Assembly: GCA_043228905.1 (NCBI GenBank)
Contig: JBHGNT010000011.1
Span: 1,798,001-1,862,000, forward strand
Origin: Azolla caroliniana
Taxonomy: Eukaryota; Plantae; Polypodiophyta
Reading direction: 5' to 3'
DNA: 64,000 bases
The position numbers and the translations under genes are program-made. Positions 7,201 through 57,242 of the stretch are shown one piece after another. The notes beneath the pieces are model-generated. The model worked only from the letters and a program-made list of their open reading frames with translations. It ran no database searches and had not been told where the DNA came from. Each line of letters starts with the position of its first letter. The first letter of the stretch is position 1.

Positions 7201-7498
7201 CCGGAAAAAAGAAAAGTAAAGCTCAATTAGTAATGTTTAGATTCCATGTGATGAAATTAAGTTTGGTTTTGACATATGCCATGAAATCATTGAAGTGAAG
7301 GAAATTGAATTTGTACATTGCATTGTGCCCATGAAAGAAGACAAGTCCTTAGCTGTACATTGTCAGCCAAACAATGAAAAGGAAACAAGCTTTTCGTGCA
7401 AGAGTATAAGAGCTCTTGCTAAGTCATCACAAAGTGTTTTACATAATAATAAACACAATAATCAACCAGGGTTTAACACGATCGAATTGTCAAATAGA

Positions 7499-10639
<3,141 letters not shown>

Positions 10640-14886: not shown

Positions 14887-14891
<5 letters not shown>

Positions 14892-14928
<37 letters not shown>
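14892..14928. repeat. (TA)n microsatellite
   Basis: Uninterrupted TA run. Confidence 0.95.
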
Positions 14929-14932
<4 letters not shown>

Positions 14933-19200: not shown

Positions 19201-22200
19201 AACAATATTCAGACCAAAGACACCATCAAAGACTCTCTTAGCATACATTTCATGTGTTTCCCCATCCTTGAGATCAAAAAAGCCAGTATCCTCAGTATTA
19301 GAAGCTTCACTGTCATTCGTTGAATGTACAATAAGATCCCTGGCCTGGCTTTCATCGCCAAACAGTCTTCCTAAAAGAAGATCTTTGGCCCAAACAATGC
19401 AATGAACTGGCTGCAATATGATATAGGGTGCAGTTTGTAATGAATACAAGGGGAAGACTTGAGTTTTGAATATAATCTACTAACTTATACATCCACTTAC
19501 TTTTGAGGGTGTACTTGTTATTGTGCACACGGGATATGTCTTTGGCAATTCTTTAGTCTGGCATTCATAGCATTCAGTGCGGCCCTTCATATGTACTGTA
19601 ACCTGACATGAAAGATATTCTCAAACAGACCATATTACAAAGATAGTGAATCCCAGTACTATAAAGGCATTATCCATACATCGGATGTATCCTATGACCA
19701 GAGACATGAACATAAAATATAAAACTACAAGAAAGTTATGTAATACAGTAAAACAGGAACCTAAAATATCACATGCACATTAACAACGAAAAACCAAAAC
19801 CTGAAGACATTATAAAATATGTATAATGTATAGAAATAACAGAATTGAGCATAAATAATGATATGAAAATCAAAAACCAACAAAACCAGGAAATTCATTG
19901 CTTTCACTGTACAGCTTGATATGCCACATCATTACTTGAACTCCATTCCAAACAGACCATATTACAAAGATATTGAATCCCAGTACTATAAAGGCATTAT
20001 CCATACATCGGATGTATCCTATGACCAGAGACATGAACATAAAATATAAAGCTACAAGAAAGTTATGTAATACAGTAAAACAGGAACCTAAAATATCACA
20101 TGCACATTAACAACGAAAATCCAAAACCTGAAGACATTATAAAATATGTATAATGTATAGAAATAACAGAATTGAGCATAAATAATGATATGAAAATCAA
20201 CAACCAACAAAACCAGGAAATTCATTGCTTTCACTGTACAGCTTGATATGCCACATCATTACTTGAACTCCATTCCTTCTATTGCAAAGATCTTTCTGAA
20301 GACGGTTGTGGATCTCACTTAAGGCTCTCTAAAAAATTCAGCTAGAGTATATATCGTTCCACGGATGGTGGATTCTATCTTTCCATATGGGCAAGAAAAC
20401 TCTTGGGATCTTACATATTCTTCTCTAGAAAGACCTTTGTGGTGGAATAGATGGAATTCAAGGAAGCATGTAACATTTCAAACTGTAGAGTAAATGCAGG
20501 GAATTATCTAGATAATTCCTATGTTTCTTGGGAAAATTTATGCCACTTAAAGGGTTTCCAGAATTTGTAGTTATCACAGACAATGTCAACTATTGTGTGG
20601 GGAGGGGTTACTGTAGTTATGGGGACATTGGGGACTGACCTTGATAATGCATGCCCTAAGAATATAATAAGATGGACATTGAAATATAATCTGGTGTGAA
20701 TGGGTCAAGGGAGCTTTCTTAAAAGAAAGCACAGTGAAATTTCAAGTCTGAATGCTAGATTTCACAGTTACATCTATTTAAATATAGCACTTACAGCTGG
20801 ACTTGCAAATTATCAACATCTCTATAATTGGACTCCTCCCCTCCACAAGAGTAGGCATCCTCTATAGCTACAAGACCTTGCAAACTTCTTCACAACCTAC
20901 ATATGTAATGCTTAAATAGATGAAACCTACAAAATCTGGCATTTAGACTTGGGCATCATGCCCTGAGTTTTTTATGGATTGTGCTCTAATTTGAAGTAAA
21001 TAAAGTCATATGCTTAGTGCATGCATTATCAAGGCTGTTTCTCAACATTTCTGTAATTACACTCCTCTCCACAAGTGTTGGCATCCTCCGTAACTACAAA
21101 TTCTTGAAACTTGTTCCAGCATCATAAATCTACCTGTGCAAACTTCACAATCTTCAGATGTGATCATATTTTTACTCTTTATAAATATTTGTAGCTTATT
21201 TATTGAGCTCATGGAACATGCTTATGCAAGGAATTTTGGTGCCCCTTTTCATGCATGGCAATTAGTTTTCACATACCAAGAAACAAAGGTGTTTCACAGC
21301 AACCACTTCATTTTTGTGTATTCTATTACAATTATGCAACGGTAATGGATCCTCCTCATACTTTTTGGCACTGGATGGGATGATTGATGAATTAGAGGTA
21401 ATGGTCTAACCACAAACACCTATATGCATTGTGAACGAAAAATTAGGGGCATTCAGGGAAACAAAGAAAAAGTATGGTATTTTGAACTTCTTATTTAAAA
21501 ATAGCCCAGTAAGATTTCATAAAATACTCTCAAATTCCAGTGGCTATGGATTCTGAGCCAACGGAAATCACAACACCTCTAATAATGATATAGAAAGTAC
21601 ATGTCACAAATCTCGTCAACTTGTGAGAGAAATGTACCTGGCCAAGGTAGCCTGTGCTCCCACTCTCAATAAGTGGAACTCCAGCAGCTAGACACAGGCG
21701 ATTCACATGTCGCCGGGCATCAACATTATCAAGTCCATTCAGGACAACGTTGAATTGTTTAAAGAACTCAACATTGAACTCCGGATTCTTTACATTTGCA
21801 TGATGTGCAGTTATATTCATTTCAGGCTTGAACTTTAGCACTGCTTCACGTGCAACCTGATTGGAAAACAAGACACAAAAAGAACATGAATTCAGCACAT
21901 TGAATGCACATCATTGTGCCAGCCTAAGCAAGATCCTACACATCGGACTACTTCTGCTTACCTTGTGTTGATAATGCTCTAGGTAGAGGGAGAGGGAGAA
22001 ACAGAGAGTCTATTAGGGTCAGAATAAACTAAAACAAAAAAGAGAATGCATACGGAGAATATATAGGTGTATCCACAAGAGAGATGAGAATTTGTCTTAA
22101 ATTACCATATTGATAGAGGAGGCTACACATGATGTATATTGTCAAACCAAAAGCTTACAGATTGGTAGAGAGACAGTATATGGTAATTGCGAAAGAGACG

Positions 22201-25048
22201 TTTTAAATTATGGGAGAGACAGTATATGGTAATTTTCTTGTGGGAAATAAAATAATCTGCAAATGTAATACATATACAATGCCCTATGCCAGACACAATT
22301 CCAGGAAATTACATATTGGTAGAACCTGCTCTCACCTTGGCTTTGGACTGCCCAACATGTCGCTTCCGGAAGAGAAACTGTCTGTTTAGATTGCTGACCT
22401 CAATTGTATCCAGATCAATCTACAGAAAGACAAAAATTCATTTACTTTAGCAAAACAATACCTGAAGTAATTAATTTCAAACCTTGTCCAATCAACGGGT
22501 GTAACTTTTTCACTTCTAGGAATATCCAGCAGTTTTGCGAGCCATAATAAATGTTTCATAAACATCAAATCCATGATCACATGCCCCACCCAAAAATCTT
22601 GAAATAGAGTATAACTCTTTCAAATACTTCAAAACACTCTACATAATGGTTCTAAATGTCTAAAATCATAATATCTTCAAATATGCATTTGCTTTTTTTG
22701 TGGAAAATGTCTCCTACCTCACAACTTTTCTCTTATATCATTATTTCATGAATATAATAAGAGAAGATTTCTCAGAAAAAATTTGAGCCACGCCACTAAC
22801 ATGCAAGCATGGGGAAATTTTCCAACATTTAAAGTGTGAAACAAATGACCCATATTATGTAGGAGATTTTTGTCTCTATTTCAATCTTAGTGTGAAATAA
22901 ATAACCCATATTATGTTAAAGATTAATTGTGTCCATTTCAATCTTACTACTATGATGGCACCACTCGACTTAACAATAATTTAATACTAGTTTGATACAC
23001 TTTTTTTGGTTCACTTCTTTGTTTTCTCTCCCTCCTATCATCACTTTTTTCAAAAGGAGTGTAATTCCAATACGTGCTGGTGTTAAAAGCCCATTATGTT
23101 TCTTTAACTAAAGTTGAAAAACGTTTTTATATTATTTAATTTTTTTCTGATTGTTGTTGAAGTTGTACAGTCTCGTTTCAGAACTGTACCATAACTTCTA
23201 AAAGAATATTTGTGATTTGAACGGGATCCTTGGACACGATTCCAATCAGCATTAAATAGGTATTTATGAGGCCATGACTTAGCTGTCCCATCAGCATTTA
23301 AAGCTCTTCTTCTAAGAGCATATGCTATGTACCTTGGATAGCACATATATATAGTGCACTACTTACTACCTTGTATATTGTTTTAGTAAGTGGTAGGCTT
23401 TTGTTTTGCAGAACTGCTTCTACTTCTTTAATCCCTCCTATGTGTTAAACCCGATAATTGTTTTTAGTTTCTATATCTCAGCCTTTATATATTTCAGAAA
23501 CTGTCTATCTTCTACTTCCTTACAATACATGGTATTCTAGAATATTCACTCTAGCTTAAGACACAAGCATTCCAGAGGCTATGATCTATGAAAGTGGTCT
23601 TTTCTTGCAAACACACCTCTTCAAGACCATCAGGTTGAGAATCAGACATTTGTCATACACTTTAAACATCATCTTCTCTTCTAAGTTACATCGCATCTCC
23701 ACCATGATACGTACATGAAGACTGGTGATTGCAATTCGCTCAGTTATCTTAATCCTTGTTTTATTCAGTGGCAAATAACACTATATTGGCATCATTTTTT
23801 CTCTAGGCTTAATCTTTCAGGCATCCACTACAGCCCAAACTGATTGAAGAATGAGGTTATTTTGAGTTTTCACAATAAGATACCAAAGGAAAATAATTAG
23901 AAGTTTCTTGATATGTGGCAATATTAGTATATGGCAGCATTTCATGCAAGATCAAAGAATGAGGTTATTTTGAGTTTTCACAATAAGATACCAATGGAAA
24001 ATAATTAAAAGACTCTTGATATGTGGCAATATTAGTATATGGCAGCATTTCATGCAAGATCAAATTATGCATATGGCTTTTTGACTTCTGATATGACAAG
24101 GCATCCTTAAGTTGCTCTTTTGGTAGCCACTTTAAATATTAGCATGTTTATAAGTACTACTTAGGAGAGGATAAGCTCAAACCAAGCAATTATTTCTGGT
24201 ACTCATTGCTTTCTACATGAAGTAGACAAGCATAAAGAAAAAATTACGAAACCCTTGCAAGATTACCAAGTGAACTTTTGTGGTATGGAGCTAAAGAAAA
24301 CATTTCTTTCTTCATGAAACCTACCATTTACATTAAACGGGCAGAAAATGAAACTCAAGAGAAAATATGGAAACTGCACAAAAGGGAAATTAAGTGTGCT
24401 TCTTGTAGTACTGGGATAAAATAATTTTACATAAGCTTTTGAAAGACCTCTAACATAACAAATAGGCCGAAATTGAAAGAAAACATAAAGAGAAGACCAG
24501 GAATCCAAGAAATATCACTTCATCTCTATGCAAAAATACACCATGGAAAAACCAGAAAAGAAGGCAGGAAATTTTCTAAAAAACTTATGAGGATGAAAAA
24601 GCAGCTAAAAAGCAAAAATCTGACGCACAAGAAACAAAAAAAACAAAGAAGAAAGAAAGGAATTCGGAAAGTTTAGCCAAATCTGGACCGAGAAGAGGAT
24701 TGATTTTGCATGGTAAACATCATGAACAATTCCATGAGGTACGCAGAAAGAAAATTGAGGAAAAAGCAGTAAACTGGATGAAACTTCGGAGAATGACGTA
24801 AATTTTAGGATGAAAAGGAGAAGGGGAATACGTACCAAGTGAACATCCGTGAATCCAGTGAGAGCTAAAGTCTTCAAAAGCTCGCATCCAATGCCTCCTG
24901 CTCCCACCATCAGAACCTTCGCATTCTGCGGCAGATAAAGGAAGCATATTAACTTTTCTGCCTACAGGGATGAAGAGTGGGACGGGAATGGATGAAGTAT
25001 GAGAAAGGAAGCTACCTCGATCGCGGAGAGCTCTTCTGGGGAAGCCAT
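16253..25048 (-). CDS. SAE2: SUMO-activating enzyme subunit 2 (UBA2-type E1 large subunit), 11 exons, 616 aa
   Basis: Exons are 25048-25016, 24925-24836, 22419-22336, 21856-21638, 19602-19501, 19410-18946, 18854-18625, 17522-17429, 17354-17172, 17089-16992 and 16505-16253. All introns are GT-AG and the total is 1851 nt in frame. Motifs include [46 protein letters not shown], the CYEC and CYVC zinc ligands, and the catalytic PVCTI. The protein also has [20 protein letters not shown], a UFD domain and a C-terminal bipartite NLS (KRKH...KRLK). Confidence 0.96.
19622..20275. repeat. 327-bp direct tandem duplication in SAE2 intron 4
   Basis: Copies are 19622-19948 and 19949-20275, with about 4 substitutions seen by eye. 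Confidence 0.92.
23847..24062. repeat. 108-bp direct tandem duplication in SAE2 intron 2
   Basis: AAGAATGAGGTTATTTTGAG...CATGCAAGATCA occurs at 23847 and at 23955. Confidence 0.9.
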
Positions 25049-25438: not shown

Positions 25439-27058
25439 AGACACTGACACATGGTGTGTGTATGTGTGTGTGTGTGTGTGTGTGTGTCAATGGCTTCATT
25501 TCATCAATAACAAACGATAGTGTGGCAATCCAATATGGTTCAATCAAGAACCAATGATGATGTGGCAGCCTGATCTGGTTCGATTAGTAATCGACAACAA
25601 CGTCACTACGACAATCTAATTTGATTTGATCATTAAACTATGGCATCCCGCTCATCCCCACAACAGCTTCCACAACTCTTCATTCTTGTTGATTTAACTC
25701 GAAACACATTCGCATTCACAAGTGGAAGGCTCGCGCATTCCACGTGTAGATTCCTTTTGTAAATATCCAAATATACCCTCTCTACAAAAATTGGATGCAC
25801 TAGTATCACATGTTCCACAACTTGATTAGAATTTGCAAAATTAATAAAACATGATAGGTCTCCGAGTGGAGAACATGTGAAATTCACTTACCTTTGGATG
25901 TGTTGATATGTTAATACCATTATAATAAAGTTCAACAATGGCTCAATATCACACTTTTGTGCGACATGGCAAACACTCAAATGAAGACTTATATTTGTTT
26001 GGTAAGTTTTGCAAAAATATGAGGTGTAATTGTATCCATGCTAATAAAATGAGTTATAATTTATAGTTTGACCCATACTCGTATGTATATAATTGTGGAC
26101 AATGTAAGATAGTGAACCTTAGGATAATGTGATTGAAATAACAAACTTATTAAGGCTTTCAATACTTGTGTTTAAAGTTGATCTAATCTAATCCTTAGGT
26201 GATTCGCATGGGATCGAACTCCGAAGGATAACACTAGTGGGACTACAAGCGTGTGAAACATGTGGATATTGATGAGAGGTGTACTCCAAGGTCATGCAAC
26301 TAATGGGACAGTGTGGCATCGACCATTATCAACACACTACACAATGTAAGCAGCAATGGAAGACAAACAAACATAATAGTTTGATAATTAAGAACACACT
26401 ACACATTCTAAGTAGCAATAGAACACAAAGATCCATAATATATGGATTGTTATATATTAGACACAGTTTGACAGTCTCGACAACCGATCTCAATTAACAT
26501 GGACAGTCTTGATGACCATTCAACGGGGATAATATGTTTAGGTAAAGTTTGACCAAAATCAGCCTTAAGGTTAACTAATTCATGTTTCTCCATATTAGAG
26601 TCAGCAATAGATGCGATGAAACTAATGTCATAAGTCAACAAACCAAGTATATAGGAATATAATTGAAACATATAGAAGAATGTAAACAATGGAGTACACC
26701 AATGGAAGAACCCAATGTTACCTGTAGGAGTTGTACGAGGCGGTATAAGGGTAAAACACGTTATAGGGGTTGTTCTATTTGTGTAATGTAGGTGAGTGTG
26801 AATGAGAATAAATATTTGTGTAAACACATGCACAATTATGTGCATGTGTCAAGCATGTAATGGTCTTCTTTTTGTAACAGTCATATTATTAGCCATTACA
26901 TTATGTACTATATAAATCCCTCATGGGGTATGTAATGAGATAGTTTTTTCCCCTCTCATTTGGTGTCATTTCCTATTTGTCTCTCTCTTGCTCTCTCTCT
27001 AACTTAACCCCCTTGGGAGGGGGGTGAAACCAATCTAGGTTTCACCCCCCACCCATCA

Positions 27059-27419
27059 ACACTTTTGGCACGCCTAAATGGTCGACCTCCCTTGAGAGGA
27101 AGTCTATCCTCACTTTCCCTCTCTGTCACTAATCCCTCACTCTCCCTCTTTGCGTCTCTATGGTGTGTGTGTGTGTGTGTGTGTCTACCTCTGCAAGATA
27201 CTCTCTCCTCTCTTCTTCACTACTATGGTGTGATCTACACTTTTGGCACGCCTGAACGACCGACATCCCTTGAGAGGAATTCTATCCTCACTTTCCCTCT
27301 CTGTCACTAATCCCTCACTCTCCCTCTTTGCATCTTCTATGGTGTGTGTGTGTGTGTGTGTGTGTGTCTACCCCTGCAATATACTCTCTCCTCTCTTCTT
27401 CGCTACTATGGTGTGATCT
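27059..27419 (+). repeat. 178-bp tandem duplication containing the PBS
   Basis: ACACTTTTGGCACGCCT...GGTGTGATCT occurs at 27059 and at 27237. Confidence 0.9.
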
Positions 27420-28001
27420 AGAAGAAGAAGAAGAAGAAGAATTGTTAATATACACCATGGTTGCTTATGGCCTAATGCCACTCCTGTCTTCCTTTTGTTT
27501 TCTGCCCCCTATCTATCATATGCCACAACAGACATTAGCAGTAGCAACTGCTCTTAATGATCCACGGAAACATGGTGGAATGTATAAAGCATTATATGGT
27601 GATGAAGTTGAGGAGTGTAATGCAAAATCTTATTGAGTTTGTATGATGATGAAGAGGAGAAGCGATATCATGCTCCTGCAAGGCACCATGATGATGATGG
27701 TACAAGAAGCCATGGTAGATGACGTCGTTAGTCTAAGCATAGTTTTGTGATGGATATTGATGAGAGATTGTCTTCCATCCACAAGGTTGTCTTCAACACT
27801 GAGGCCATAGAAATGAATTTCCTTTTGCCAAGAAGAAAATGATGATGATGACATGGAGGCTTGAGAGTTGAATGGAAGCAGATTCAGACAAAGATAGCAA
27901 AGAAGAAGAAGAAGGTTGTCATAGAGTCGATATGTTTTCACTTCTTTTGAGTTGATGACTAGGCATTCACTTCATGAAGTGGATGTTGAGGTAAAGTTGC
28001 G

Positions 28002-28298
28002 ATGTATAACCATTTCTATGCAAGAATATCATCTTCATTGAGAAACTGTGTGGACATTGTTTTGGGTAAGCATGTACATGACTTCAGATTCATTGAGTTT
28101 GGTCTGGAACAAAGGAAATACCTCTACAACCTTCTTATACTCTATGGGAGCTATAGAGCTATGCACGACGCATTGTCATTGTTCATAAAGCTTCCCTGGA
28201 CACGACATGTTACACTATTCAACATCTTTCTTAGCCACTTTGCTAGAGAGAAGAACAACCAAGTTGCTATGGCAATTCTCAGGAAGGTATTATCCTAG
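28002..28298 (+). pseudogene. PLS-class pentatricopeptide repeat (PPR) gene fragment inside the non-autonomous LTR element
   Basis: SSLRNCVDIVLGKHVHD..IEFGLEQRKYLYNLLILYGSYRAMHDALSLFIKLP.RHVTLFNIFLSHFAR matches the consecutive PPR motif pattern LL+AC...GK.VH..I...GL....NxLxxMYxxCG..DA..F..MP.R.V..WN. It is degenerate and truncated. Confidence 0.6.
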
Positions 28299-29720
28299 AC
28301 AAGATGAGTTATACGAGTGTGTGTGTCGGTGTGTGCTAATCGAGAGGAATCTGGAAGAGAAGGTGAAGAGAGACTAGAAGAGCAATGATCGTCATGGAGA
28401 TATGATGATTAGGACAAAGAAGATAATGATGAAGGTTATCAGCGGATGAAGGTGAATTAGACGAAGGCGGACCACCAATGGGTGGCGGAAAAGACCGAGC
28501 AGCAGAGGAACAGACGACGATGACCATTACCAAATGAATGGTCGACGAATAGCCGAGAGTCGGCCGAACAAAGCCGGCTTGAAAGCCAGTGAACCAAGAG
28601 ATGTCTAAGCAACAACCTACTGACAAATAGAGCCGGATAACAAACAGACATGGCCGATGAACAATAACCAACGACTAGTGCCAACCACACAGAGACATCT
28701 GGCGGCGACAACGGTAGAGACAAGAGACGGTTGGCAGATGACGTCTGACAGCCGGCGGCCGACAAACCCGTGGACAGAGACAACCGGTGTCTGGCAACTA
28801 GCGGACAAAGCCAGCCAGATTGTTAGGCCGAGAATTGGCTGAGACATAAGCATCAGCCAAGAGCCCGCTGAGATACGTCGACATCCGATGAAGTGGACGA
28901 ACGAAGACCGACGGTGGCAAAGCCGAAAATATGGTTTGGAAGCTGTACAAAGACGGCCCCAAACAGAGCCGACCGTTGAGAGATGAAATTTCAAAAGCTC
29001 AAGGTCATGAGATGAAATTTCAAAAGCTCAAGGGCATGACATGAGATTTCAAAAATTGGAGGGTAGAATGCAAAATTTCGAAAACACAAAGGCCAAAAAT
29101 AAAATTTCAAAAAATTTGAGGGTAAAAATTTTAGAGACCAAGGGTAAAAATATACAAAGCTCAATTCACATGACAAACCCGAAAATACACATACATGTAA
29201 CACAATCATGAAAGACCCAAGCCGCAATGGATGAGCCAATTGGTGTGTGATCCAATTGAGTGACATGTTGACCAAACGAGAAGGTTCGAGTCAAGCAATG
29301 CTCCGATTGAAGTTATCGATCGTAGAGCTATGATTTGGTCGATGGACTTTCGACCGTTGAGACGACCGATGGAGTTTCGGTCGCTAATAACTGCCATGGC
29401 GAGTGGGTTCACCATGCGATGCACTGTCCCACAGGCGTGCCATGTGTTACCGATAGGAGTTGTACGGGGCGGTATAAGGGTAAAACACGTTATAGGGGTT
29501 GTTCTGTTTGTGTAATGTAGGAGAGTGTGAATGAGGATAAATATTTTTGTAAACACATGCACAATTATGTGCATGTAATGGTCTTCTTTTTGTAATGGTC
29601 ATATTATTAGCCGTTACATTATGTACTATATAAATCCCTCATGGGGTATGTAATGAGATATAGCTTTTTCCCTCTCATTTTGTGTTTGTCTCATTGTTTC
29701 TCTTTCCTTCTCTTTCCCTC

Positions 29721-32700
29721 TTGCCCCGGTCATACAATCACTGGATTGGACGCGAACGTTCCACGTGTTCGTGGATGCGTCAAACATTGCGATCGGTAGC
29801 ACGCTTATGTAACTGACCGAACCAAATTGGTATCAACAAGTTTATTACTCGAGCCGAAAACTTTCGGTCGCCGAACGTAATTACTCCTACCAAGTGAGAA
29901 GCCCTGGGTATGATATATAATATCAATAAATTTCATCACTACCTATTGGGTCGGAAATTCTTCTTCCACATGGATCATGTGGCCCTACTGTATCTGGTAT
30001 CGAAGTAGTCCCTCATAGATAAGCTGGCGCGATGGATGTTGTTACTACAAGAACTCAAATTTGAGATTTAGCATCGGCCAAGCGCTCAACACGCGGTCAT
30101 AGATTATCTAAGCTTCATCGAAAACGGAGAGAATGCTGTAGAGGATGATGATGACATCCCAGATTGCGGAATTCTATGAATTTCCGAAACAAAGAAGTCA
30201 TTACCGGAAGACAAATGGCTCGAGGGTCCTGATCACCGGCTTACTGCCCCCACAGATGCGAACGGATGAGAAGAAGCAGTTGGCGGTCCGTAGTATAAAT
30301 TTTTACCTATTAGAGGGAACGCTATATCACAAAGGGAGCGACGACATTTGGCGACGATGTGTTCAGCGTGATGAAAAAGAAGCCGTGTTACGCGAACCGC
30401 ATTGAGGGATAGCCGGGGGACATTACGCTGGCGACGCCACCGCAAGGAAAATATGGCAGGGTGGTCTTTGGTGGCCAACCTCACAAAAGGACGCCCATAC
30501 GTACTGCCGTCAGTGCGATTTATGTCAGTGGATGGAACAACCCACGGAACGAGCCCGTATGCCTCATCAACCCATTCTCCGATTGGAGCCAGTTCAAAAA
30601 TGGGGCCTCGGTTTCGTCGACCCGTTCACCCCAGCCATGACACACACAGGAAATAGATACATCTTGGTTGCAATGGATCATTGCACAAAGTGGGTCGAGG
30701 ACAAAGCTTTATGGGACAACACGACAACGTCCACCGTGAAATTCCTTTACGAGAACATCTGGTGCTGGTTTGGATGTCCCATCGAGCTCGTAAGCGATCA
30801 AGGCACCCATTTCCTAAATAAGGTTATACACGGGCTCACTGATCACTACGTCTAGTCCATAAGAAGAGCACCCTGTATTACCCTTAGGCAAACGGGTTTG
30901 CGGAATCAACGAACAAAACCCTACAGAACATTCTCAAGAAGATCGTCAACGAAGACCACACCGACTAGGATATGAAACGTCAAAGCGCCCTATGAGCATA
31001 TCAAACAAGCTTCAAAACCAACACCCAATCCACCTCATTCAGGTTAGCCTTTGACCTCGAAGCAGTAATGTCGGTCGAATTCCAGATCCCGAGTCTAAGG
31101 ATACAGATCTGTGAATGCCTTCCCGAAAAATAGTCAGAATAGTTACGGTTACAACAACTCCTTGAACTTGGTGAAGATAAGGTACTAAGCATGACGGTTT
31201 TGGAACAGGAACAACGCCGTCGCAAAGCGTTCATTGACCAACATTGGGGGGGGGGGGGGGGAGTAACGAGAAATCCTTCGAAATCAGAAAGGCCGTACTA
31301 GTGTTCTAGAAATGCATGGGAAAAATGCCGGGCAAACTATGATTCTAGTGGACGGGGCCGTATTGGATAGTCTGCGTTGAAAACGACACCTTCGAGCTCG
31401 GAGCGCTGAGGAAATTTTACGACGAAAGGTCAATGGCTTCTTACTCAAATCCTACTTGGGACCCACACCCCCAAATCCTTTCTGAAATGCCGCGGAGTTA
31501 ACGGGTGAAAACGTCGGCCCACTCCCATTAATTTGAACCTCACTGTAATGTAATATTAATGTAACATATTAACAACCATTACTATTAGGTATGAAATGAA
31601 AAGGAAAAACACGAAAAAGAAAAAGAAAAAGAAAAAGAAAAAGGCACTTGGAACAATATGGAGGCGCACAACCCAAGAAAGCAAGTACCCTCTCCAGTCA
31701 CATGCGTGGACAACATGGTTCGTAGAATCTTGAACAGTAGCGTTCCCACCTCACAAAAAGGTAATCTGAGCAATTTCTCTAACCTTGCACAACTTAGAAG
31801 CTCCCCTTGCTCTCCTCACTCTACCTACTCAGAAAGAGTTTCACATCTTCGCTACTCCTCATCTACACGCTCTCCTCGCTCTTCACACCACACAAACAAC
31901 CCTTCTACACAAATAGACGCCGAGACAGCCATGCCGATCGACATCTCATCTGCTCTACGATAGTGGCTCCATGACCACAGACTCGCCAGATACATAAGAG
32001 TAGTGGAAGCGCTGCCCCACCCCAACTCCCATGAAATGACGACGCAGATCAATGTGGACACGGTCACGAATGCCACAATCTGAAAAAAGTTGGGCCTGAG
32101 CTCCACAGGGGAACGCCACTTCAAGATCCCTCCCACAGAGGACCTCAAACGGTATTTTGACGAATACTCACTCTCTGTCAGGCGTATAGGACAAGGGATG
32201 CACTCGATCCTTTCTTCCGCAAGATCACCAAGTTTCTGTTGGAAGTGGGTTGCGTGCACTCCAATGCTTACGGAATGCCGAAACAGAAGGCCATAATCCT
32301 CATATCAACCTTCGAGGGCCACGCCGTCGACTGGGAGTCATCATAGGGCCATCCTTGCGTGAAGGCCTCCACACCTTCCAGGCCGGTAAGAAGCTCTGGC
32401 CCATCATCCAACAATATTTCACAATATTGTTCCCCCCACTGACCCTACAGCTCTGGGTTCATCCCCCCCAACGCCAGCTCCGCGTCAACAGAAGCGCACG
32501 GAATGGGAGGAGGAAGGAAACATCCGTGCACCGAAGTAAGTCGACACCTGGAATGGGCAACAATCGGCACACACCACGAACCAAGAAACAGACGAATGGC
32601 TGAGCAACTCCAAACCCAAACGTCGTCGGCTGGATTAGAAGGACGATTGGGGTTTTACAAAAGACGCGGCACCACAACCTAGCACTGACGTATTGGCCGA

Positions 32701-35700
32701 GGCGGACCCCATGCAGGTCTTCGAAGAAATTCCATGGTCCAAATCAACCCTAATGGAGAATACAGAAAGAGGCAAAGGCCTCCTCACGTCGAACAATGTC
32801 GTGATGGCCTGTTCGGAGATGTCATTCGTAGCCCATGAGTTCGCAACCTTGTTACAATTCGGCACATCATTCGAAATCATGGAGTTCTTGGCAACACAAC
32901 AAATAAAAGTCTCTCAATGCATGGACAAGGAACATATGGAAAGACAAATGATTGAGCGAGCCCTGGCAGGAATAGCAAAGAGAGAAGATGAATGCGCCTC
33001 GGGCAAAATTAGACATAATGAGGAACGCGAGCAAAGGCCATGTCGGAATCAAGGTTCCTCCATTGAATACCTCCTTAATCGAGGTCCACAGGGAGTTACC
33101 CAAGGATATGGTATGCAAAAACAAGACCGCAAAGAAGGCCAAAAAGTACACCAAGCAATAGCTTGAAGAGGCCTAGAAGACGATAGTTGGAGCATCGACC
33201 ACAGGAAGCAACAACCTCAACCAAAGCTTCCCCCACACCCAAAATACGAAGACTCAATGAGGAGGTCTAAGCCCAAACGATGATAGTAGCAAAAGCGAAA
33301 AGAGCGGCAGAACTCGCCGAGATGAAAATAGAGTGAGTCCTCTTTGAGCTCCGACAATCATCGGATCGGGAAACAGACGTCCAAGCAAAGGCAATGAAAG
33401 ACATAAAAACGATACAAGACAAGTTGGATGCCTAAATTTCGGCCTAAAAACAAACCATCGAAGCGCTCAACAAATAGACGGAAGTAGTAGGTCGAATCAA
33501 GGGTACCATCGAGGCATTGCGTGAGGCCGTGCAAAAGAAGCGCAAATGGTACGATGATTAGATCGAAATAGAGCGCTAGTTGACAAGAGAGGTCGAAGAA
33601 CACTTAAATAAGGAAATGGGCCGGCTCGAAGAATTGCACGAAAAAGAGTCGAAGCTCTAGTAGGAGGTAAAATCACAATATGAAACGTAGGCGGGGCCTC
33701 CAACACCAGCAAAATCGCAAATCTCAAGATGGCCATCCAAGAAATGTGGACGAAAACCGAGATGAACACTAAGAGAATCAAAGTCCTACTATTGACAAAC
33801 AAGGAGAGATTCAATTGCCAGCTCCAGGAAGCACTAGACCGGGGCTGGGCTGAATGGGCGAAGTAGGCAACGGAGCTCCATACCTACCGGCCTGACTAGA
33901 CGAATCGGTAGAAAGACGGTAAGGTCTTTTATAAACTAAACGAAGAAAGCATCACAATGGTCAGTGAGGACATTTTGCATGACTATCAAGCCATGGACGA
34001 CCACCACTTTGAAGAAATCATGCAGATGTTAGAGGAGTTCGGTGATAGTTAGATTGAGACCTCATTCGAACTCCAGGCGTACGAGAACAAACCGAAACAG
34101 ACGGAGCAAGGGAAAGGATCATACACCATTGTGTTTCCCGACAATGACTTCGGCGAGGATGCATCGAAAGGCCAAATTTCGGAAGTCACCACGACGCCGA
34201 ACCTACCATCGAAGATGCGTCTGGAACTCGCCAAGGCCACGCCAGAAGAAACACTGTGTGAGGAGCCACTTGATAGCCCTCCCTTGACCAGCCATGCAGA
34301 AGGAGGCCCAGAACTTGAGCAGATGACATCGATTGAACTAGAGTTGGGAAAGACAATCGAAACAACAATCGAACTAGAGCCGATAGAGCCAACCACACTA
34401 GAACCGATGACGCAGACCTCAATAACCCCCGAAACACCCACGATGGTTCCCACTTACACGGCTCGACTAGATCCTAGACATTTTTGACGACACATGAGAT
34501 TCCTCGTGGGTTCGACCGACCGTGCATGCACTGTCCCACATGCGTGCCATGTGTTGGCCACCTCGGACAACCAAGTGGGAAATGTCGAAAAAAGAAAAGA
34601 CAAAGGGGACGATTATGGTGAGTGAAGAAGAAGGGTGGGGCCAAAGCGTAGTTAAGAGGGCGTAACAACCAAAACATTCATGAGGGGTAATGGTTCACGC
34701 GCCAAGCGTAATCGCTCATGACCCTATATAAAGGGCATGGCGAACTTGTAAAAAATCTTAATCATAATCTTGTATACAGAATTGTGGAATATAGATCTAT
34801 TTTGCCTAACTTCCTGTGTTGAGTCGTGTACTCTGAATGTGTTAAGTGTGGAACGTTGTCGCGGTATTCCGCGAGCGCGTGTAGGATCCGAGGCGGGACC
34901 ACGGGGGCTTGGACTAGGGAGTAGAGGAGAAGGAATAAGACACAAAATGGAAGCTTAGCTCAAGAGGAGAAGAGGAAGAATAGCACATAAACATAAAATA
35001 GAATAGATGGAGGCAAGATACACCCCCAAGACAAGAAACATCAACATGCTATATTAAGAGTTCACAAAAAAAATTACAACCAAGGCTGCATAGGCCGCAC
35101 CCAAAACAACTACAAGAAAACCCTAACCGGATAACTAAGCAAAGAAGCATAGAAACGCTAAAAGAAACCCAAGAAGAAAACCCTAGAAGAAACCCTAAAA
35201 CCGAATAGAACCCCTCAACCTAAGTGGTATACCTATCTCACTCAAAATAGGCAACCCCTTCACAAGTGACCCCTCACTCCCTTTTATAGTAGTAAGGGGT
35301 GAGCACATTACAAGAGGGAGTCAAATCCCCTTTCCTTTAATGGGGAATATCTCCCTTGATCTTAAATCGGTGGGCCTTAACTCTCTCTCTCTCTCCTATC
35401 ACATTCACTCTCAATGCCCACTACTCATTCTACTCTACAAAGTGCATATCACATTTATGCCTCTACGAACCTCGTGGTGCACCTTTAGCACCTTAGATTA
35501 TTACCCTTCCCCTTTACATTTTGTTATCTTATTCTCATCATACAAATTTACAAGTGCATGTGTAATGTTGCACATCCCCATTTATTTGTCCCTCCCAGTT
35601 TTCTCACCGTAGCTGGAAATCTTCACGACAACGTGTCGGTTGTAACCATCATTGTAATCTCCACAATCTCCACGATCGAGATAACTATTACAATTCTAGT

Positions 35701-35817
35701 ATACAATCGTACCCGAGTTACTGGTACGACTTGAGCATCCTTCCATGACCATGATTCCCTTGAGACAAACACCAAAGGACCGAGGATTTGGCACCGTGTT
35801 ACCCTAAACCAAAAACA
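29721..35817 (+). mobile_element. 3' portion of a non-chromovirus Ty3/gypsy element: RNase H, integrase, long extra ORF region, 3' LTR
   Basis: RNase H begins FHVFVDASNIAIG at about 29760. The integrase has a zinc finger (GGHYAG..WWPT..CRQCDLCQ), a core (LVSDQGTHF, ANGFAESTNKTL) and WTGPYW. A degenerate plus-strand extra ORF runs about 31920-34487. The 3' LTR is 34552-35817 (TGTT..AACA, TATATAAA at about 34724) and is split by a solo LTR. Confidence 0.8.
34857..35630 (-). mobile_element. Solo LTR (TGTCG...CGACA) with 4-bp TSD ACGT
   Basis: Termini are inverted TGTCG/CGACA, and ACGT flanks both sides (34853-34856 and 35631-35634). A minus-strand TATAAAA lies at about 35285. The terminal segment resembles the LTR at 46854. 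Confidence 0.85.
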
Positions 35818-36730
35818 ACCGAATCAACTTCTTCTTGCTCGACCGCGTCCTCTTCCTCCATCCGAGTGTGAGTAGAGCATGTGGCCTTTGGAGGCGTTGT
35901 TCCTTGTTCGAACATGGTTTTCTTCAACCAACAACATTGATTGAAGATCGAAGAAAGAAGGAGGATTCTCCCTTTCTAGAATGGCGGTTCTCATTGCACC
36001 GAACCGTGGTGCAAGGCCACCGAGGTATATTTGCACCATCTTATCATCCTCCATGTTGATGCTTATTTAGTTGAGCGAGTCACAAAGCTCCTTGATCTTC
36101 AAGGTGTAGTTTGTGATGGAAATATCCCTTTGTTGGATGTTGTTCAACTCTTGGCGGAGTTGAAGCTATCGTGTCGTTGTATTGGCGATGAATATCTTAT
36201 TGTTCTCCCAAGCTTCTTTGGGCGTCTTGGCTTCTCGAATGTAGCCAAGTATGTGGTCATGGACACATGTCGCCAAGAAATATATTACTCGGCTTCCGGC
36301 TTGCTCCCATGTTGAGTATTCGGGAGTCCTTGGGTCGGGTTGATTTTCTTGTAGTCCTTTGATGTAGCTCCAATAGCCTTGGTCGACAAGGTATTGGTGC
36401 ATCTTGTACTCCCAAGATGCAAAGTTGTTTCCGTCCAACTTCTCACTAGGGAGAGCTCTCCCCATTTGAGTATTCATTATGTCGATGTAGTTTTCCTTCT
36501 CTCTTGAACGTGAACGATGTAGTTGCACTACGATAGCGATGAGCTAGTTCTTCTTGAACGTTGGCGTAGAACACAACACACGTGAATGGGCTACATCGAG
36601 CTACCAAATCGCTCTGATACCATGTAAAGAATCGGATATGATTCTATGCAGCGGAAGAGATGTGTGTTATGTGTGTGTGAGAGAGAAGATGAATGAAGAG
36701 GAGAGAAACACAAGATAGATAATATGAGAG
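35818..36730 (-). mobile_element. Ty1/copia 5' fragment (U5, iMet PBS, degenerate gag)
   Basis: The PBS TGGTATCAGAGC is on the minus strand at 36611-36622 and partial LTR occupies 36623-36730. Gag reads LPSEKLDGNNFASWEYKMHQYL...AKTPKEAWEN. Confidence 0.85.
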
Positions 36731-39159
36731 TGTTGAGAATCAAGCTCAGCTAGACTAGTGTGTGAACACACCGTCAAGAATCTATGAGCACTCAAAGGTC
36801 AAAAGTCACCACTACTCTCTACACATTAACAATGTGTCATAAAATCATATTATATGACACATAACTAATGAGTTTCCACATTCCCCATGACCAATGAGCT
36901 TCGGTAGTTAATGAAGAAAGAGGGTGAGTATATAAAGCACCCTCCTCCTACTTTGTAATGTGTTGGTTAATCTCCTTTGTAATATACATCTTCTTGAGTA
37001 TTCTATTTTCCATTCTATCCATCTTGTGTCTCTCTCCTCTCCTCTTCTCAAACACACACACACACACACACACAACACACATCTCTAACCTATTCTGCTG
37101 CACAAAATAACCACGATTCTTTACATGGTATCAGAGCGCTTTGGTAGCTCGATCTAGCCCATCCGCGTGTGTCATGTCCTACGCCGACGTTCAAGAAGAA
37201 CCAACTCATCCCTAACATAGTGCGCCACATAGCTCATATTCAAGAGAGAAGAAGAAGGAAAGATATCTACATCTCTCTCCCTAGTGAGAAGTTGGACAGA
37301 AACAACTTTGCATCTTGGAAGTACAAGATGCACCAATACCTTGTCAGCCAAGGCTATTGGAGCTACATCAAAGGAGCATAAGAACATCAACCCGACCCAA
37401 CGTCTCCTGAATACTCAACATTGGCGCAAGCCGCAAGCTGAGGGATGTATTGCTTGGCGACATGTGTCCATGACCACATGCTCGACTACATTCGTGAAGC
37501 CAAGACGCCGAAGGAAGCGTGGGAGAATCTTAGGAAGATTTTCAGGGCGAACACAACCGCAAGAAAGCTTCAACTTCGCTAAGAGTTGAATAATATCCAA
37601 CAAAGGGATATGTTCATCACAAGCTACACCTTGAAGATCAAGGAGCTTTGTGATTCACTCGGTTCAATAAGTGTCAATGTGGATGATGGTGCAAATATGC
37701 CTAGGTGGCCTCACATTACTGTTCGGCACGATGAGAATCGCTGTCCTAGCAAGGGAGAATCCTCATTCTTTCTTTGATTTTCAATCCATGTTGTTGGTTG
37801 AACAAAACCATGTTCAAACAAGGAGCAACGCCTCGGGGCGAAATGTTCATGATGAGACATAGAGCAAATTCTATGTCGGCTTCTACTTCGACTAGTGCCT
37901 CCAATCCGGAAAACGTATGGTTCGTCGACTCCGGTTCCTCAAACCATATGACGTCTCACCAAGAATGGTTCCAAGACTTACGAGGGAAGGATTGACCCAA
38001 CTATGTTGAAACCGGAGATGACACTACTCATTCGATTCGGCATATCGACAATGTCCCATTCAGGAAAGACAATAAACAAACTTGCATCAAAAATATCTTG
38101 CATGTACCAACCATAATGAAGAATTTGGTCTCGGTTGAGCAAATTGTTGAGCAAGGCATGCAAGTTAGATACAACCAAGGTGGTTTCTTCATCGAGAAGG
38201 AAGGTTGACTAATCGCTCATGGACGAAGGGAAGGCCAAATGTTTATCCTTGAATCGAACGAGGTAAAATCGGCCATGTTTGCAAAGGGCCTCAAAGCCGA
38301 CATTGACATATAGTTGTGGCACAAAAGAATCAACCATATCAATGTCAACAAACTCAAGGGCATGCAATCAAAAGGAGTTTTCATTGGACTTCTGATGTTC
38401 AAAGAGAAAGAGATTGAATGAGTATGTGGAGCTTGCCAATTCGACAAGCAACATCAGCACCCATTTCCAAAGGAACGAAAATGTGAGCAAAGGCCTCCTA
38501 GATGTGATCCACTCGTATGTGTGGGGACAGACACAAATGACCACATTTGGAGGATGTCAGTATTATCTTACCTTTATCGACAACTTCTCTAGGCATACAT
38601 GGATCTTTCCCATGAGGCAGAAGAGCGAAGTGTTTAGACACTGCCAAAAATTCAAAAGCGAAGTTGAAAAGACAACTGGCCGCCATGTACGATGTCCACT
38701 CGAGAGAAGAATCTGGTTAGCCAATTCAGCTACAATGACTATATGGCATACCACTATGCTTTTATGATGAAGGTGGCAACAGATCGTGAACTGGAGAGCT
38801 TTGTCGAAGTTGCTAAAAATTCACGATGGGTCGAAGTGATGAACGAGGAGATGCAAGCTCTCAACAAGAACGAGATATGGGATCTCGTCCCTCACTCACC
38901 TCACAGGAAGGCAATCGGCTGCAGATGGATTTACAAGCTGAAGTACAATCTCGACGGCTCAGTCAATCACCACAAAGCCCAACTTGTAGTGAAAGGGTAC
39001 ATACAAACACACGGTGGTGACTATGAAGAGACCTTTGCCCCGGTGGCAAAGATAATGATTGTGCGGATTGTGATTGCACTTGTAGTAGTGAAAGGGGGGC
39101 ACCTCCACCAGATGGATGTCAAGAACGCCTTTCTCCAAGGAGAATTAGAAGAGGAGGTG
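36731..39159 (+). mobile_element. Ty1/copia element of the same family inserted in opposite orientation; degenerate gag-PR-IN-RT, interrupted in RT
   Basis: The LTR is 36731-37125 (TG..CA) and the PBS TGGTATCAGAGC is at 37126. Protease reads WFVDSGSSNHMT, and the integrase has an internal deletion at about 38695. RT reads AIGCRWIYKLK...HQMDVKNAFLQGELEEEV. Confidence 0.88.
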
Positions 39160-46853: not shown

Positions 46854-49800
46854 TGTCGTGCCTTTCGGCTCCGGATCGTTTGCGTGAGTCGGGTGGGAAC
46901 CACTGGGGTTTTGGACTAGGAGAAAGAAGAATATGAGATGAGGCTAGTAATGAATAGATTATTAGAAGCTTGTGAATCCCACAAGTATTACGTTAATCAA
47001 TATTTATGTAAGAATATGTATTTAGATTGAAAGAGATAGATTATCTTAAACTTCGTGAATCCCACGAGTATATTTTATTGATTGTTGGTGTTTTAGGAAA
47101 TATATCCAATTTCCCAAACATTTCACACACCTATTACATTGTGCTCCCCATCCTTATGTAGTGATGAGGGAGTCCATGCTTTTTTTTTTCTAACTATAGA
47201 CTCCATGCTTTTCCTATAGATAGACTATATGCTTTATCTAAAGTGATCATGCTTTTTCTAACTTGTGCGTTTTTTTTATCAACTATAGCGTTCATGCACG
47301 CTAGATGTGCATGTGTAGCTTTTTCTTTTAGCATGCGTTTTCTTTTAACTAAAGTTTATCCTAGGTGAACTAAGCTTTCTATGTGGAACATCTATTTTTA
47401 AACACAAATGAAATGCTAGTGTAATGGTAAGACATTACATTATTAACATGGAGGTGCAAGGTTCGAATCTTGCCCTATGCATGTTCCATTTATTTTGCTA
47501 TTTTCTTCTATTTCTTCATTTTTTTATTGAATCTAATACTATATACGTTTTTCACGTAGTGTACAAAATACACTACGACACTCACCCCCTCCAAACCCGC
47601 ACATCCTCCGGTATGTGCCGAAGTTGTTGGTGTTTGTTAGTCTCCTCCGTCCGGTCTCTACCCGATTGGTTTCGTTGCCGGCTCGTAGTACCCTCGACTT
47701 CTCTTGTTATGTTGACTTTGTCTCTCCATTTGGAGCACATCCATTCTTTCCACCCGAACCATTGTCGCCATCCGATCCACCATAGTCTTCGTTCGCTTTT
47801 TGCATGGCCCGCTTGGTCCTTGTCATCCGCGGTAGTATCTTTTCTTGCCCTCTTTCTTTTCTTCATCAATCTCGACTTCTTTTCGGATTTTCGGTTTAGT
47901 CGGATTAGCTTACTTCCGATTCGGTCTCGTCGGATCGTCTTTCGTTTAGTTCGGCTTCCTTTCCGATTTGTATTCGGTCGATCCGGACTCGGTTGATCGG
48001 TTTTTACCGATTCAGTGCTCTTTCGGGTCAGTTTCTTTTCTTTTCTTTTCGTCCGGATTTGCTTTCTTTTCTTCGTTTTCACCTGCCTTGTCCGGTTCGA
48101 CTTTCGGCACTTCTTTCCGTTGTTCGCCACGTAGGTCCTCCGATATGTGCTCGTTGTTCGGTCCTCGTGTGGTTGTAATGCATGCTTCTTTTCTCGCCGT
48201 AGCGCGTGCTTCTTTATTCGCCATAACACGCGTTTCTTTATTCGCCGTAGAGCGTGCTCTGTATTACGCGCTTCTCTCGTCGTAGACCCGACCTCCGCAT
48301 TGTCGCACTTTCTTTTAGATTGGAATTTCGGATGGATCATTTTCCATCCGAACCGACTTCCGACTTTACCTTCCTCGTCGCCATCTCCCGTCTCTCCGGT
48401 CTCACGTTGGTTCTCGGACACAACCGCCGAAGTCTCTAGATATTGTTGGCATGAATCCTCGGTATTACCTTCTTTCGTAGTTTCACCCTTAGCATTCTTC
48501 TCGGCTATCTCTTCATCGTATTCGTCGGCTTCGACATTCGTTTTCTCTCCGCCACCTTCCGTCTCTTCGGTCTCACGTTGCCTTTCGATCGCAACCGCCG
48601 GAGTCTCTGGAATCAGTGGTGGGGAAGTCTCGATATGGCAATCCGCCATTGATTTGTCCATAGCCACCTCCGATTCGATTTCGTCTTTTGTGGCTACCTC
48701 CTTAATCACATCCGCTTCACACTCTTTATCTGCAACAATTATGCAAACATCTATTATGCTTACCCCTTTTTGACCCGATGTCTCGGGCACTTGTATCCCG
48801 AAATTTCCTTCTACACTTGAATTATCGGCCTTATCCTTCGCCATCGTTCTTTCACAAGACAAGAGGGTGGTAGCTTGTTTTACACCCTCTTCCGTCGCAC
48901 CATCATGTTGTATTTCGGCCTTCATATCGGCTCCATCGTTTGTCTTCAATCGACCATCCTTCATCGGCCATGTCGTTGACAAGATTCTCATCTTCCTCTC
49001 ATCATGTCTCCGGCATACCCTTTGGACTTCGGCCCAATCCTCGGTAAGACCGTTCGCACCGTCATCATCTTCGAGTTCGATCCCAATGTCCATCCTTTCT
49101 TTCCGATCGATCGATCTTACGAACATTAAGACTTTATCTCCTCCCACCAATCTTCGTTCCCGCTCCGAGAGTCGAGCAAAACAATGCTCGAACTCTAGGA
49201 ACGCTTGCGTTGCACTTCGGTGAGTCTTCTCCGACGCCACCCATTCGTCGAATTCTCGTCGATCTCGTCCCGTCCATCTCTCATAGTCATATGCCTCCCG
49301 TAAAGCTTCTTCAAAGGACTCCCATGTCGAGTTTTGTTGTTGTATCTTGTGGATTCTCTCTTGTAGTTCGTCCGAGGCTACCCGACTAAAGGATATCACT
49401 TGCAATCCTTCCGGTATCCGATATTGCATCATCTCCGCCTTATATTCACGTAGGTAGCGTGACACACCCTTACCGTTGAATTCCCCGTTTCGTCGGAGAA
49501 GCCGCTCTACTACCGCCTTCATCTCCGACATCACTCGTTGTTCTTGTAGCATCCGCTCGAACATCATCATCATCATGTTCATCGCCTCTTGTTGATTCTC
49601 CATCTCCTTGCCACCCGCCTTCACGTCGGGTTCACCAACTTGTGTCGTGCCTTTCGGCTCCGGATCGTTTGCGTGAGTCGGGTGGGAACCACTGGGGTTT
49701 TGGACTAGGAGAAAGAAGAATATGAGATGAGGCTAGTAATGAATAGATTATTAGAAGCTTGTGAATCCCACAAGTATTACGTTAATCAATATTTATGTAA

Positions 49801-55622: not shown

Positions 55623-57242
55623 AAAGAGAGATAGAGAGAAATGTTCCTTCATGTTTCATTCATTCTCCATAAGGGGGTTAAATAGTACAAGAGGGGGTAG
55701 ATACAAAGGGGTGAAAGCCCCCTAGAGCATTCATATTGGACACTCACTCACACCTCATCGTATCCCTCCACATGCACACACGTGTGCATGTGTTCACATA
55801 CATATCGACTCACAATTACATTTATGTTCCCTACACATATACAACATCATCATGATACTATTCGACCCTCGCTCATCACACTTGACTCTCCGTACAGCTC
55901 GTACGGGGTAACACAATATGGCACGGCCGTGGGAAAGTGCCTTGCACGTCGATCCCACATGCCTTGATGATGATATCTCTTCGACCGAAACTTCCATCGG
56001 TCCTTTCAACGATCGACTCCCTCGATCGGAGTGCTTGACTCGAACATCTTTGTCGGTCAGCAAATCTTTCCGCGACACGAACAGTCTCATTCTGTCGGCT
56101 TACGAACTTTTTCATGGGTCTAAAATCATGTCGTGTATATGTATGTTATTCCTTTGTTTTGAGTGTGTGTGAGTAGTATTGGGGATTTTCAAAATTTTGG
56201 TGGTGCCCTCTTGTTTTTTTAAAATTTTTGATATGTACCCTCAAACTTTGAAAATTTCATTCAGTATCCCCAAGTTTCTGAAATTTTAGGCTGCTACCCT
56301 CAACAGTTTAAAATTTCTTCGCATGCCCCTTTCTTCTCTTTTTCCCTCTCATTTATTTTTTCTGTTTGCTTCTTACATTTTCTCCCGCGTGTTGTCTACA
56401 TCTTCTTCCTCCTTCTTGGTGTTAACCGTTGCTTCTTCTCCTATTCCTGTCTTTCTTTTCCTTCTTCTCTGTTTGTGCTACCCTGTCCTTTCTTCTCCTT
56501 CATTCTTTTTTTCTTCCTTCTGCTCTATTTCTCCTCTTATTTTCTGATTTTCTTCTTCTTTCTTTTCTAATTCTGCCTTCGGTGGTTGTCGGCTTTGTCC
56601 ATGGTCTCTGTCTCTCTGCTCAGCCATTGGTTGTTTGGCCACTCTGACCATTTCAGTTCCTCCTGCCACTCCATCTCTGTCTCCGGCACCATTGCCGTCG
56701 TGGTCTCCGTTCTGGCGTCGTTCAGCCACTCTGACCGCTCTCCGGCCGGCGCTTTTCCGGCCTCTCGTCAGTCTCTATCGTTGTCGCTATTCTGGGCATC
56801 GATCCGGCCTGTTCCGGTCGTCTCCATGTTTGTCATTGTCCGGTCCATCGTCCCGGGGGCCTGTCTGCTTCCCCAGCCTTGTCCGGCTGCTCCAGCCACT
56901 GTCCGGCTATTTCGACCGGTTTCCGGCCCTTCTGGCCGCTCTTTCCATTGTCTGGCTCTGTTGGCCATGTCTGTCCGGTCCATCTCCAGATGTCTAGCTC
57001 GCCGGCCTTGTCGGCCCTGCTGTCTTTTGGTCACGTGTCCGGTCCGTCCGTTTGTGTGGTCGCCTATTCGGCCCATTTGTCCCATCCTACTGTGTATTGT
57101 GTCTTTTTGGTCGCCTTTGTCTAGTGCATCCGTCTGTATCTTTCCGGCGTTGCTGGTTGATTTCTGGTTTGCGTCTGCATCTCCATCTCCGTCTTCTTTG
57201 ACCCTTCGGTGTTAACCAACTTGGGTTCTGGTTCTGATTTCG
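55378..57242 (-). mobile_element. 3' part of a second non-autonomous element related to 26716-29720
   Basis: LTR 55378-55913 shares the CCCCCTTGGGAGGGGG..CTAGG..ACCCCC segment and the TGTTACC start (minus strand) with the 26716 LTR. The same tRNA-Arg-like end lies at 55919-55958. The non-coding interior is similar in composition to 28330-29440. Confidence 0.75.

Follow-up and report, generated by a model that had tools for sequence, protein, structure and literature searches.

The synthesis of plus-strand DNA by LTR retrotransposons and retroviruses is, as a textbook rule, primed from a polypurine tract (PPT). In the window analyzed here (the whole stretch of 64,000 nucleotides), the place where this tract belongs is occupied by a split copy of the 3' arm of a tRNA, as its position, orientation, conservation and covariation show. 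One may therefore ask whether such a sequence is a priming signal and, if so, what it pairs with.

The motif starts with GTGGGTTCGA at 34506 on the plus strand and ends in CCA at 34549, followed by a 2-nt spacer (TG, 34550..34551), whose length is fixed in relatives, and by the LTR, which begins with TGTTGG at 34552. Its parts, under the tRNA position numbering that we take to apply, are a copy of the 5' strand of the T-stem and of the T-loop (positions 49-58; 34506..34515), recognized by a ten-mer match in relatives; an inserted 4-bp hairpin, GTGC-AT-GCAC, between positions 58 and 59 (34522..34531), whose inner pairs covary; and a copy of the tRNA 3' end through CCA (34533..34549), one C shorter than the tRNA end that can be read from the primer-binding site (PBS) of relatives. 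The tRNA is presumably a tRNA-Arg, a label that we likewise assume for the PBS types. The initial annotation had described a T-arm and acceptor copy interrupted by a hairpin, which the T-arm 10-mer kept in relatives supports; the stem, given there as GTGCA/TGCAC, is actually GTGC/GCAC with a 2-nt loop. It had also placed the motif immediately before a 3' LTR, with no purine tract and with RNase H, integrase and an extra ORF upstream on the plus strand; these coordinates are confirmed, and the plus-strand TATA announced near 34724 is TATATAAA at 34725. The 17-mer pattern is not a chance occurrence, being found twice in the window and in 0 of 100 first-order resamples. A covariance model of the motif (R1), which the initial annotation had proposed, was built and detects a third, decayed copy before another LTR (55911..55965, minus strand, 41 bits), as well as the site of a distant element described below. 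A tRNA gene or a tRNA-derived SINE was considered and rejected, as there is no full cloverleaf and there are no A/B boxes: ARAGORN reported 0 tRNA genes in the window and 0 in the distant element, and Rfam gave no tRNA match to 26000-36000 at E up to 10.

Upstream of the motif, on the plus strand, lie an RNase H remnant with stops and a frameshift (29711..30173; PF17917/PF17919), an integrase remnant with stops and frameshifts and without a chromodomain (30313..31480; PF17921, PF00665), 70-72% identical to the intact polyproteins P0002 and P0006, and a decayed extra ORF (31880..34485), homologous to a sense ORF in relatives, which stops about 20 nt short of the motif. This ORF matched no Pfam family and contained no second RNase H (best Atlas score 0.81), and a profile built from the C-terminal extensions of six distant relatives gave no match to it above shuffles. 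The 3' LTR spans 34552-35817, with TG..CA ends, in two plus-strand parts: the left (34552..34856, with the TATA) is colinear with locus L037 (67%) and 12 other loci, and the right, with the CA end (35635..35817), matches L037 at 69%, both being colinear with the single post-motif LTR of that locus. Its end resembles the LTR ends of L014, L028 and L037, contigs of other copies end at 35818, and beyond 35817 there is flank and no PBS. Between the two parts lies an unrelated solo LTR on the minus strand (34857..35630), bordered by ACGT at 34853-34856 and 35631-35634. No RT, gag or 5' LTR is found upstream of the RNase H in the window copy; its pol starts at the RNase H, which borders directly on a short non-coding element at that element's truncated 3' LTR. 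The window copy is thus a dead element, with stops, frameshifts, a missing RT and 5' LTR, and an interrupted 3' LTR, and because of the stops and frameshifts it is not autonomous.

The short non-coding LTR element (26716..29713, plus strand) has a 5' LTR at 26716-27061, a PBS at 27066 and again at 27244, a motif at 29403-29442 and the truncated 3' LTR from 29445; its PBS region is tandemly duplicated at 27055-27420 with a 178-bp period, giving the two PBS copies. The solo LTR belongs to a very abundant family that shows an NCGN duplication and, in other copies, a PBS side of what we take to be the Trp type; judging from the NCGN duplication, it is Phygy-like, and these traits occur here in a probable fern, Phygy having been described from Physcomitrella. 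Elsewhere in the window, two copia 5' ends that are 80% alike and oppositely oriented face away from a shared 500-bp LTR-like stretch (35891-37834; PBS at about 36611, minus, and about 37126, plus), and an element at 46854-50369 has direct repeats of 727 bp that are 100% identical and, in antisense, an ORF of 716 codons with no Pfam match. A nearly intact chromovirus (57243-64000), with gag-PR, RT-RH and INT-chromodomain in three long frames, has LTR starts that are 99.5% identical, indicating a recent insertion. Host genes for a papain-family protease and SUMO-activating enzyme subunit 2 occupy 8400-10700 and 16400-24950 (minus strand). Three fern proteins share 67-69% identity with the SUMO E1 protein and two seed-plant proteins share 62%, and no moss protein appears among the matches listed, at least 120 in number; the host is a land plant, probably a fern.

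Whether the LTR at 34552 is truly the 3' LTR of this element was assessed with relatives. A pattern scan of metagenome contigs yielded 106 loci, 92 of them related and 14 lacking context, the latter serving as chance controls; the 92 come from one assembly series and may represent one or a few related hosts, so that they are not independent in this respect. Viral contigs gave 0 pattern matches and 0 related loci. Read on the minus strand, the junction does resemble an LTR end, 2 nt and a PBS, as it would if an independent minus-strand element were inserted with the motif as its ordinary PBS; the initial annotation had named such an insertion as the finding that would undo its reading. This alternative is rejected as extremely improbable. 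Antisense gag was found upstream of the motif in 0 of the 59 loci with at least 450 nt upstream, the extra ORF lies there in sense in 28 of the 59, and the TATA is on the plus strand. In loci L029 and L072, the order along the motif strand is extra ORF, motif, LTR, PBS and gag, the gag being 37-43% identical to P0002/P0006; in both, the assembly may have collapsed 3' and 5' ends into one, without consequence for the strand evidence. Furthermore, related LTRs carry the PBS past their right end (motif, LTR, 4-5 nt, PBS in eight loci), and the complete distant element shows the same arrangement. In contigs of four DNA runs, joints connect diverged extra-ORF stretches with the motif, and the summed depth rises from the preceding bin to the motif from 33 to 22,276, 28 to 9,056, 27 to 10,522 and 0.3 to 94, a jump that shows very many contigs sharing the motif and gives no copy number. 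The LTR at 34552 is the 3' LTR of the window element and the motif is no ordinary PBS, as had been proposed from pol orientation.

The distance between motif and LTR is strongly conserved: TGTT lies exactly 2 nt past CCA in 83 of the 92 related loci, versus 0 of the 14 controls, the spacer being TG in 59, AG in 13, GG in 10 and other in 10 of the 92. Clustering by LTR start distributed 81 loci into 27 clusters, 18 of them single loci. The search pattern did not include the T-arm 10-mer, yet at least 7 of its 10 positions match in 84 of 88 related loci; among the 14 chance loci, 3 reach 7 and none reaches 8. Its loop bases are kept (T54 in 80 and C56 in 79 of 84 loci), A58 is the most variable T-arm base (39/84), and a large family has G53A and A58G in this block. 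Among distinct 10-mers, G-to-A changes (26/160) are not clearly more frequent than C-to-T changes (4/32). Position 34541 is T in the window copy and G in 70 of the 92 related loci. The search pattern fixed the 3' block, one-base deletion included, and these loci are therefore not informative on the conservation of that block, on the deletion or on compensation in the outer stem; among the matches listed from the contigs of the four DNA runs, none has a one-base insertion at the deletion site. As a separate observation, two motif-bearing families (L022, L050) run past CCA into one shared unrelated sequence that is not their LTR, which could reflect recombination at the motif, an insertion there, or a chimeric assembly.

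The inner hairpin covaries. Parsed without use of pairing in 68 of 88 loci, its inner two pairs are complementary in 61 of the 68, with 11 distinct types, six of them Watson-Crick (permutation p 0.003). In an alignment of 46 rows, comprising 2 copies from the window and 44 loci chosen by hand for diversity from the 81, with some rows out of register, 20 cells changed on both sides versus 5.4 ± 1.8 in shuffled data, a kind of count that kinship inflates. A PPT before the 3' LTR is absent from the 87 loci evaluated: the longest purine run within 80 nt is at most 8, and the mean purine fraction of the last 15 nt before the LTR is 0.54.

A distant complete element, L107, the only match in genome contigs (integrase 56%), has LTRs 93% identical (3416-5057 and 15522-17176), and its pol plus extension forms one 2,444-codon frame. 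Ahead of its 3' LTR stand a 7-bp hairpin, a tRNA-like CCA end, AG and then TGTT, and R1, built without L107, detects this site (18.4 bits, E 3e-5, a rough value). Its T-arm match is weak and one base differs in the last 10; it retains the C that is missing from the other motifs. The flanks, AATA and ATAT, give no exact match as a target-site duplication. Its contig, from a bacterial bin, joins a plant-type retrotransposon (3400-21419) to bacterial ABC-transporter genes (1-2900) and is probably a chimera or contamination. In L107 (7151-14482), as in P0016, P0019 and P0121, an in-frame fusion joins the extra ORF, which has no Pfam family, to the integrase, the L107 extension adding about 1,000 residues after the integrase. 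The initial annotation had proposed to look, with the integrase as query, for complete copies with an Arg-type 5' PBS and the 3' motif; L107 has the motif, but its PBS sequence is different from the motif type. The same is true of L077 and L078, in which motif end and PBS end are linked by contiguity only. A literature search for the PBS 9-mer gave no match.

These three elements bear on a further alternative, minus-strand self-priming, in which RNA cut after the CCA of the motif would prime at the element's own PBS. The 10-nt PBS found in the short elements is indeed the reverse complement of the last 10 nt of the motif. Since L107, L077 and L078 keep the motif with an unrelated PBS, however, the motif is no mirror of the element's own PBS, and self-priming, together with PBS-motif pairing, is therefore rejected as a general explanation, L107 largely refuting it; moreover, the 14-nt PBS of L014, L028, L029, L070 and L072 contains the base missing from the motif, and the plus strand would be left without a primer. 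We regard this reading as very improbable. Because it holds the missing base, the 14-nt PBS matches the host tRNA better than the motif does, and the different PBS of L107, L077 and L078 together with the C kept in L107 indicate that what the match follows is a host tRNA and not the PBS of the element itself.

The schemes for Ty3 and HIV-1, as given in the available parts of PMC5371799 and PMC13191261, imply that the primer's 3' end sets the end of U3; with CCA at a fixed 2 nt and no PPT, priming would therefore take place there. This consideration speaks against a cis signal of another kind (for packaging, for dimerisation, for recruiting tRNA, or as a decoy in silencing by tRNA fragments), with the plus strand started from a non-purine or distant primer, which we consider improbable. 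There is a precedent in the split tRNA-binding sites of Ty1 and Ty3, which serve minus-strand initiation and which, in the portion of PMC5371799 consulted, likewise involve acceptor stem and T arm in two segments with looped-out sequence between them. Those sites are complementary to the tRNA and lie on genomic RNA, whereas our motif is identical to the tRNA on genomic RNA and is proposed to act on minus-strand DNA; pairing with the own PBS is, in addition, impossible in L107.

On balance we lean, with moderate confidence, towards a mechanism in which a second host tRNA would anneal to the complement of the motif in minus-strand DNA and prime the plus strand. The minus strand is likely primed in the ordinary way, by a host tRNA at the 5' PBS. 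RNase H would first clear the RNA from the minus-strand DNA; the last 10 bases of the tRNA, the 7-base block behind a one-base bulge and the T-arm strand would then pair with the DNA, the hairpin looping out at position 58/59. Extension from CCA would leave a 2-base overhang, to be trimmed by integrase. We infer the partner to be a host tRNA from the 14-nt PBS sequences. In favor of such priming stand the 2-nt CCA spacing, held in 83 of 92 loci across the 27 clusters and in the distant L107, and the lack of a purine tract, whereas other copies of the solo-LTR family have a G-rich run on their PPT side. Priming in trans would also explain why the loop bases are kept while position 58 varies freely, why the hairpin sits at 58/59 and why the motif alone lacks a strong fold, base 58 of primer tRNAs being methylated and unable to pair according to the accessible text of PMC13191261. 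Against it, the one-base deletion weakens an otherwise perfect tRNA match, the large family carries G53A and A58G, L107 has its weak T-arm and the mismatch in the last 10, the substitution counts show no clear strand polarity, and the DNA strand of the motif folds no better than shuffles.

The same position and 2-nt spacing would also fit priming in cis, in which the element's own tRNA-mimicking RNA would replace the PPT: once the minus strand is made, the RNA would refold into T-stem plus hairpin, the last 10 bases would stay bound, and RNase H, by its tRNA-removing activity, would cut after CCA. The missing C would be tolerated, the outer stem pairs in 86% of the cells of the 46-row alignment, some copies (L029, L009 and L105) are predicted to fold into T-stem plus hairpin, and some variant hairpins have G-U pairs on the plus strand. 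However, six sequences of the motif alone, folded as RNA, did not do better than shuffles (z -0.35 to +1.41), the window copy has a predicted fold other than T-stem plus hairpin, G53A and G49A break outer-stem pairs (any compensation being invisible with the 3' side fixed by the pattern), and the conservation of T54 and C56 is left unexplained. We regard priming in cis as the main rival, of rather low probability; under priming by a host tRNA, no fold above shuffles is expected, because the motif would need a partner.

Regarding the lineage, integrase homologues are 63-75% identical to the window integrase. P0002 and P0006 are intact gag-PR-RT-RH-INT polyproteins without a chromodomain or an added RNase H; the same order is found in L107, and RH precedes INT in the window. 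Ty3/gypsy features are thus present (RT-RH-INT order, TG..CA LTRs and, in relatives, a tRNA PBS following the 5' LTR). The acidic motifs of RT and RNase H are ordinary, with no lineage-specific change in the catalytic motifs of the seven proteins compared. In a quick, midpoint-rooted tree of 57 RT-RH rows, which contained no REXdb or Tat references and left out one short window row and two rows without a hit, the RT of the relatives groups apart from chromoviruses (SH-aLRT 100); P0002 and P0006 join L107 (99), within a group that includes two Riccia rows (97). The lineage is sister to, and not inside, an angiosperm group (97-100 SH-aLRT) whose rows we take to be Athila-like and to which RT-RH identity is 40-44%. 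A PPT is missing from the 87 loci and from L107; as the available text of PMC6317226 ascribes it to 'most' elements, its loss marks a variant and not an exclusion from Ty3/gypsy.

Canonical Ty3/gypsy elements and retroviruses, as represented by Ty3 and HIV-1 in the parts of PMC5371799 and PMC13191261 at hand, share with this lineage the gag-PR-RT-RH-INT order, TG..CA LTRs, a 5' PBS, a conserved signal directly before the 3' LTR and the RNase H acidic residues; there, an element-encoded purine tract primes the plus strand, whereas here a sense tRNA 3'-arm copy with a covarying hairpin stands in its place. Athila, a non-chromovirus of the OTA group, as far as covered by the accessible text of PMC6317226 and 10.64898/2026.03.20.713144, is alike in lacking a chromodomain and an added RNase H, in having an extra ORF after pol and in a PBS 3-6 nt past the LTR, and differs in a PBS mostly of the Asp/Asn/Ala type, an antisense extra ORF and, in Brassicaceae Athila, a PPT; the combination of such a PBS with a PPT is not found in our lineage. 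A tRNA-Arg PBS is common in the Tat subclades Ogre, Retand and TatIII (PMC6317226, available part), and the zero branches of Tat in non-seed plants also lack the added RNase H according to the portion of PMC13468544 available, where 'PBS', 'PPT' and 'tRNA' have 0 occurrences regarding these branches. No Tat-type added archaeal RNase H was found in P0002, P0006, the L107 extension or the pieces as which the extra ORF of close relatives is seen. Phygy of Physcomitrella is likewise a non-chromovirus of a non-seed plant, which according to the text of PMC6317226 consulted lacks an extra ORF, has a PBS of the Trp/Thr type and makes NCGN duplications; here the PBS is different, the extra ORF is long, and in the few relatives whose flank beyond the 3' LTR is visible, it does not read NCGN. 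The window element is a decayed non-chromovirus Ty3/gypsy element that lacks tested features of Athila, Tat and Phygy.

The initial annotation had seen in this element a likely autonomous partner lineage. The window copy is too broken for that role, with its stops and frameshifts; the lineage, with the intact polyproteins P0002 and P0006, is the likely enzyme source, because in other copies the motif goes together with this gag-pol lineage. From the shared ends we infer that the motif may serve these enzymes as a priming signal, and that they may mobilise the short non-coding element. From sequence comparisons, we find it somewhat probable that this is a long-established and successful clade of Ty3/gypsy elements in non-seed plants that would have dropped the PPT and would prime both strands with host tRNAs, the plus-strand tRNA being fixed and acting through a three-way RNA-DNA junction and the minus-strand tRNA variable among families, with short elements parasitic on both signals.

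In the literature searched, mostly outside the subscription literature and including the available parts of PMC6317226, PMC13468544, PMC5371799, PMC13191261, PMC554778 and 10.64898/2026.03.20.713144, neither a tRNA copy at the PPT position nor a tRNA-primed plus strand is described. Cer7 of C. elegans reportedly encodes its own tRNA-like primer, a case on which we do not build. For annotation, tools that seek a PPT may overlook such elements, and tools that seek a PBS may assign the wrong strand. The plus-strand primer requirements of RT and RNase H become directly testable in this system, and, whether the primer is a host tRNA or the element's own RNA, a high-copy clade with a tRNA-shaped signal would constitute a natural exception to the PPT rule.
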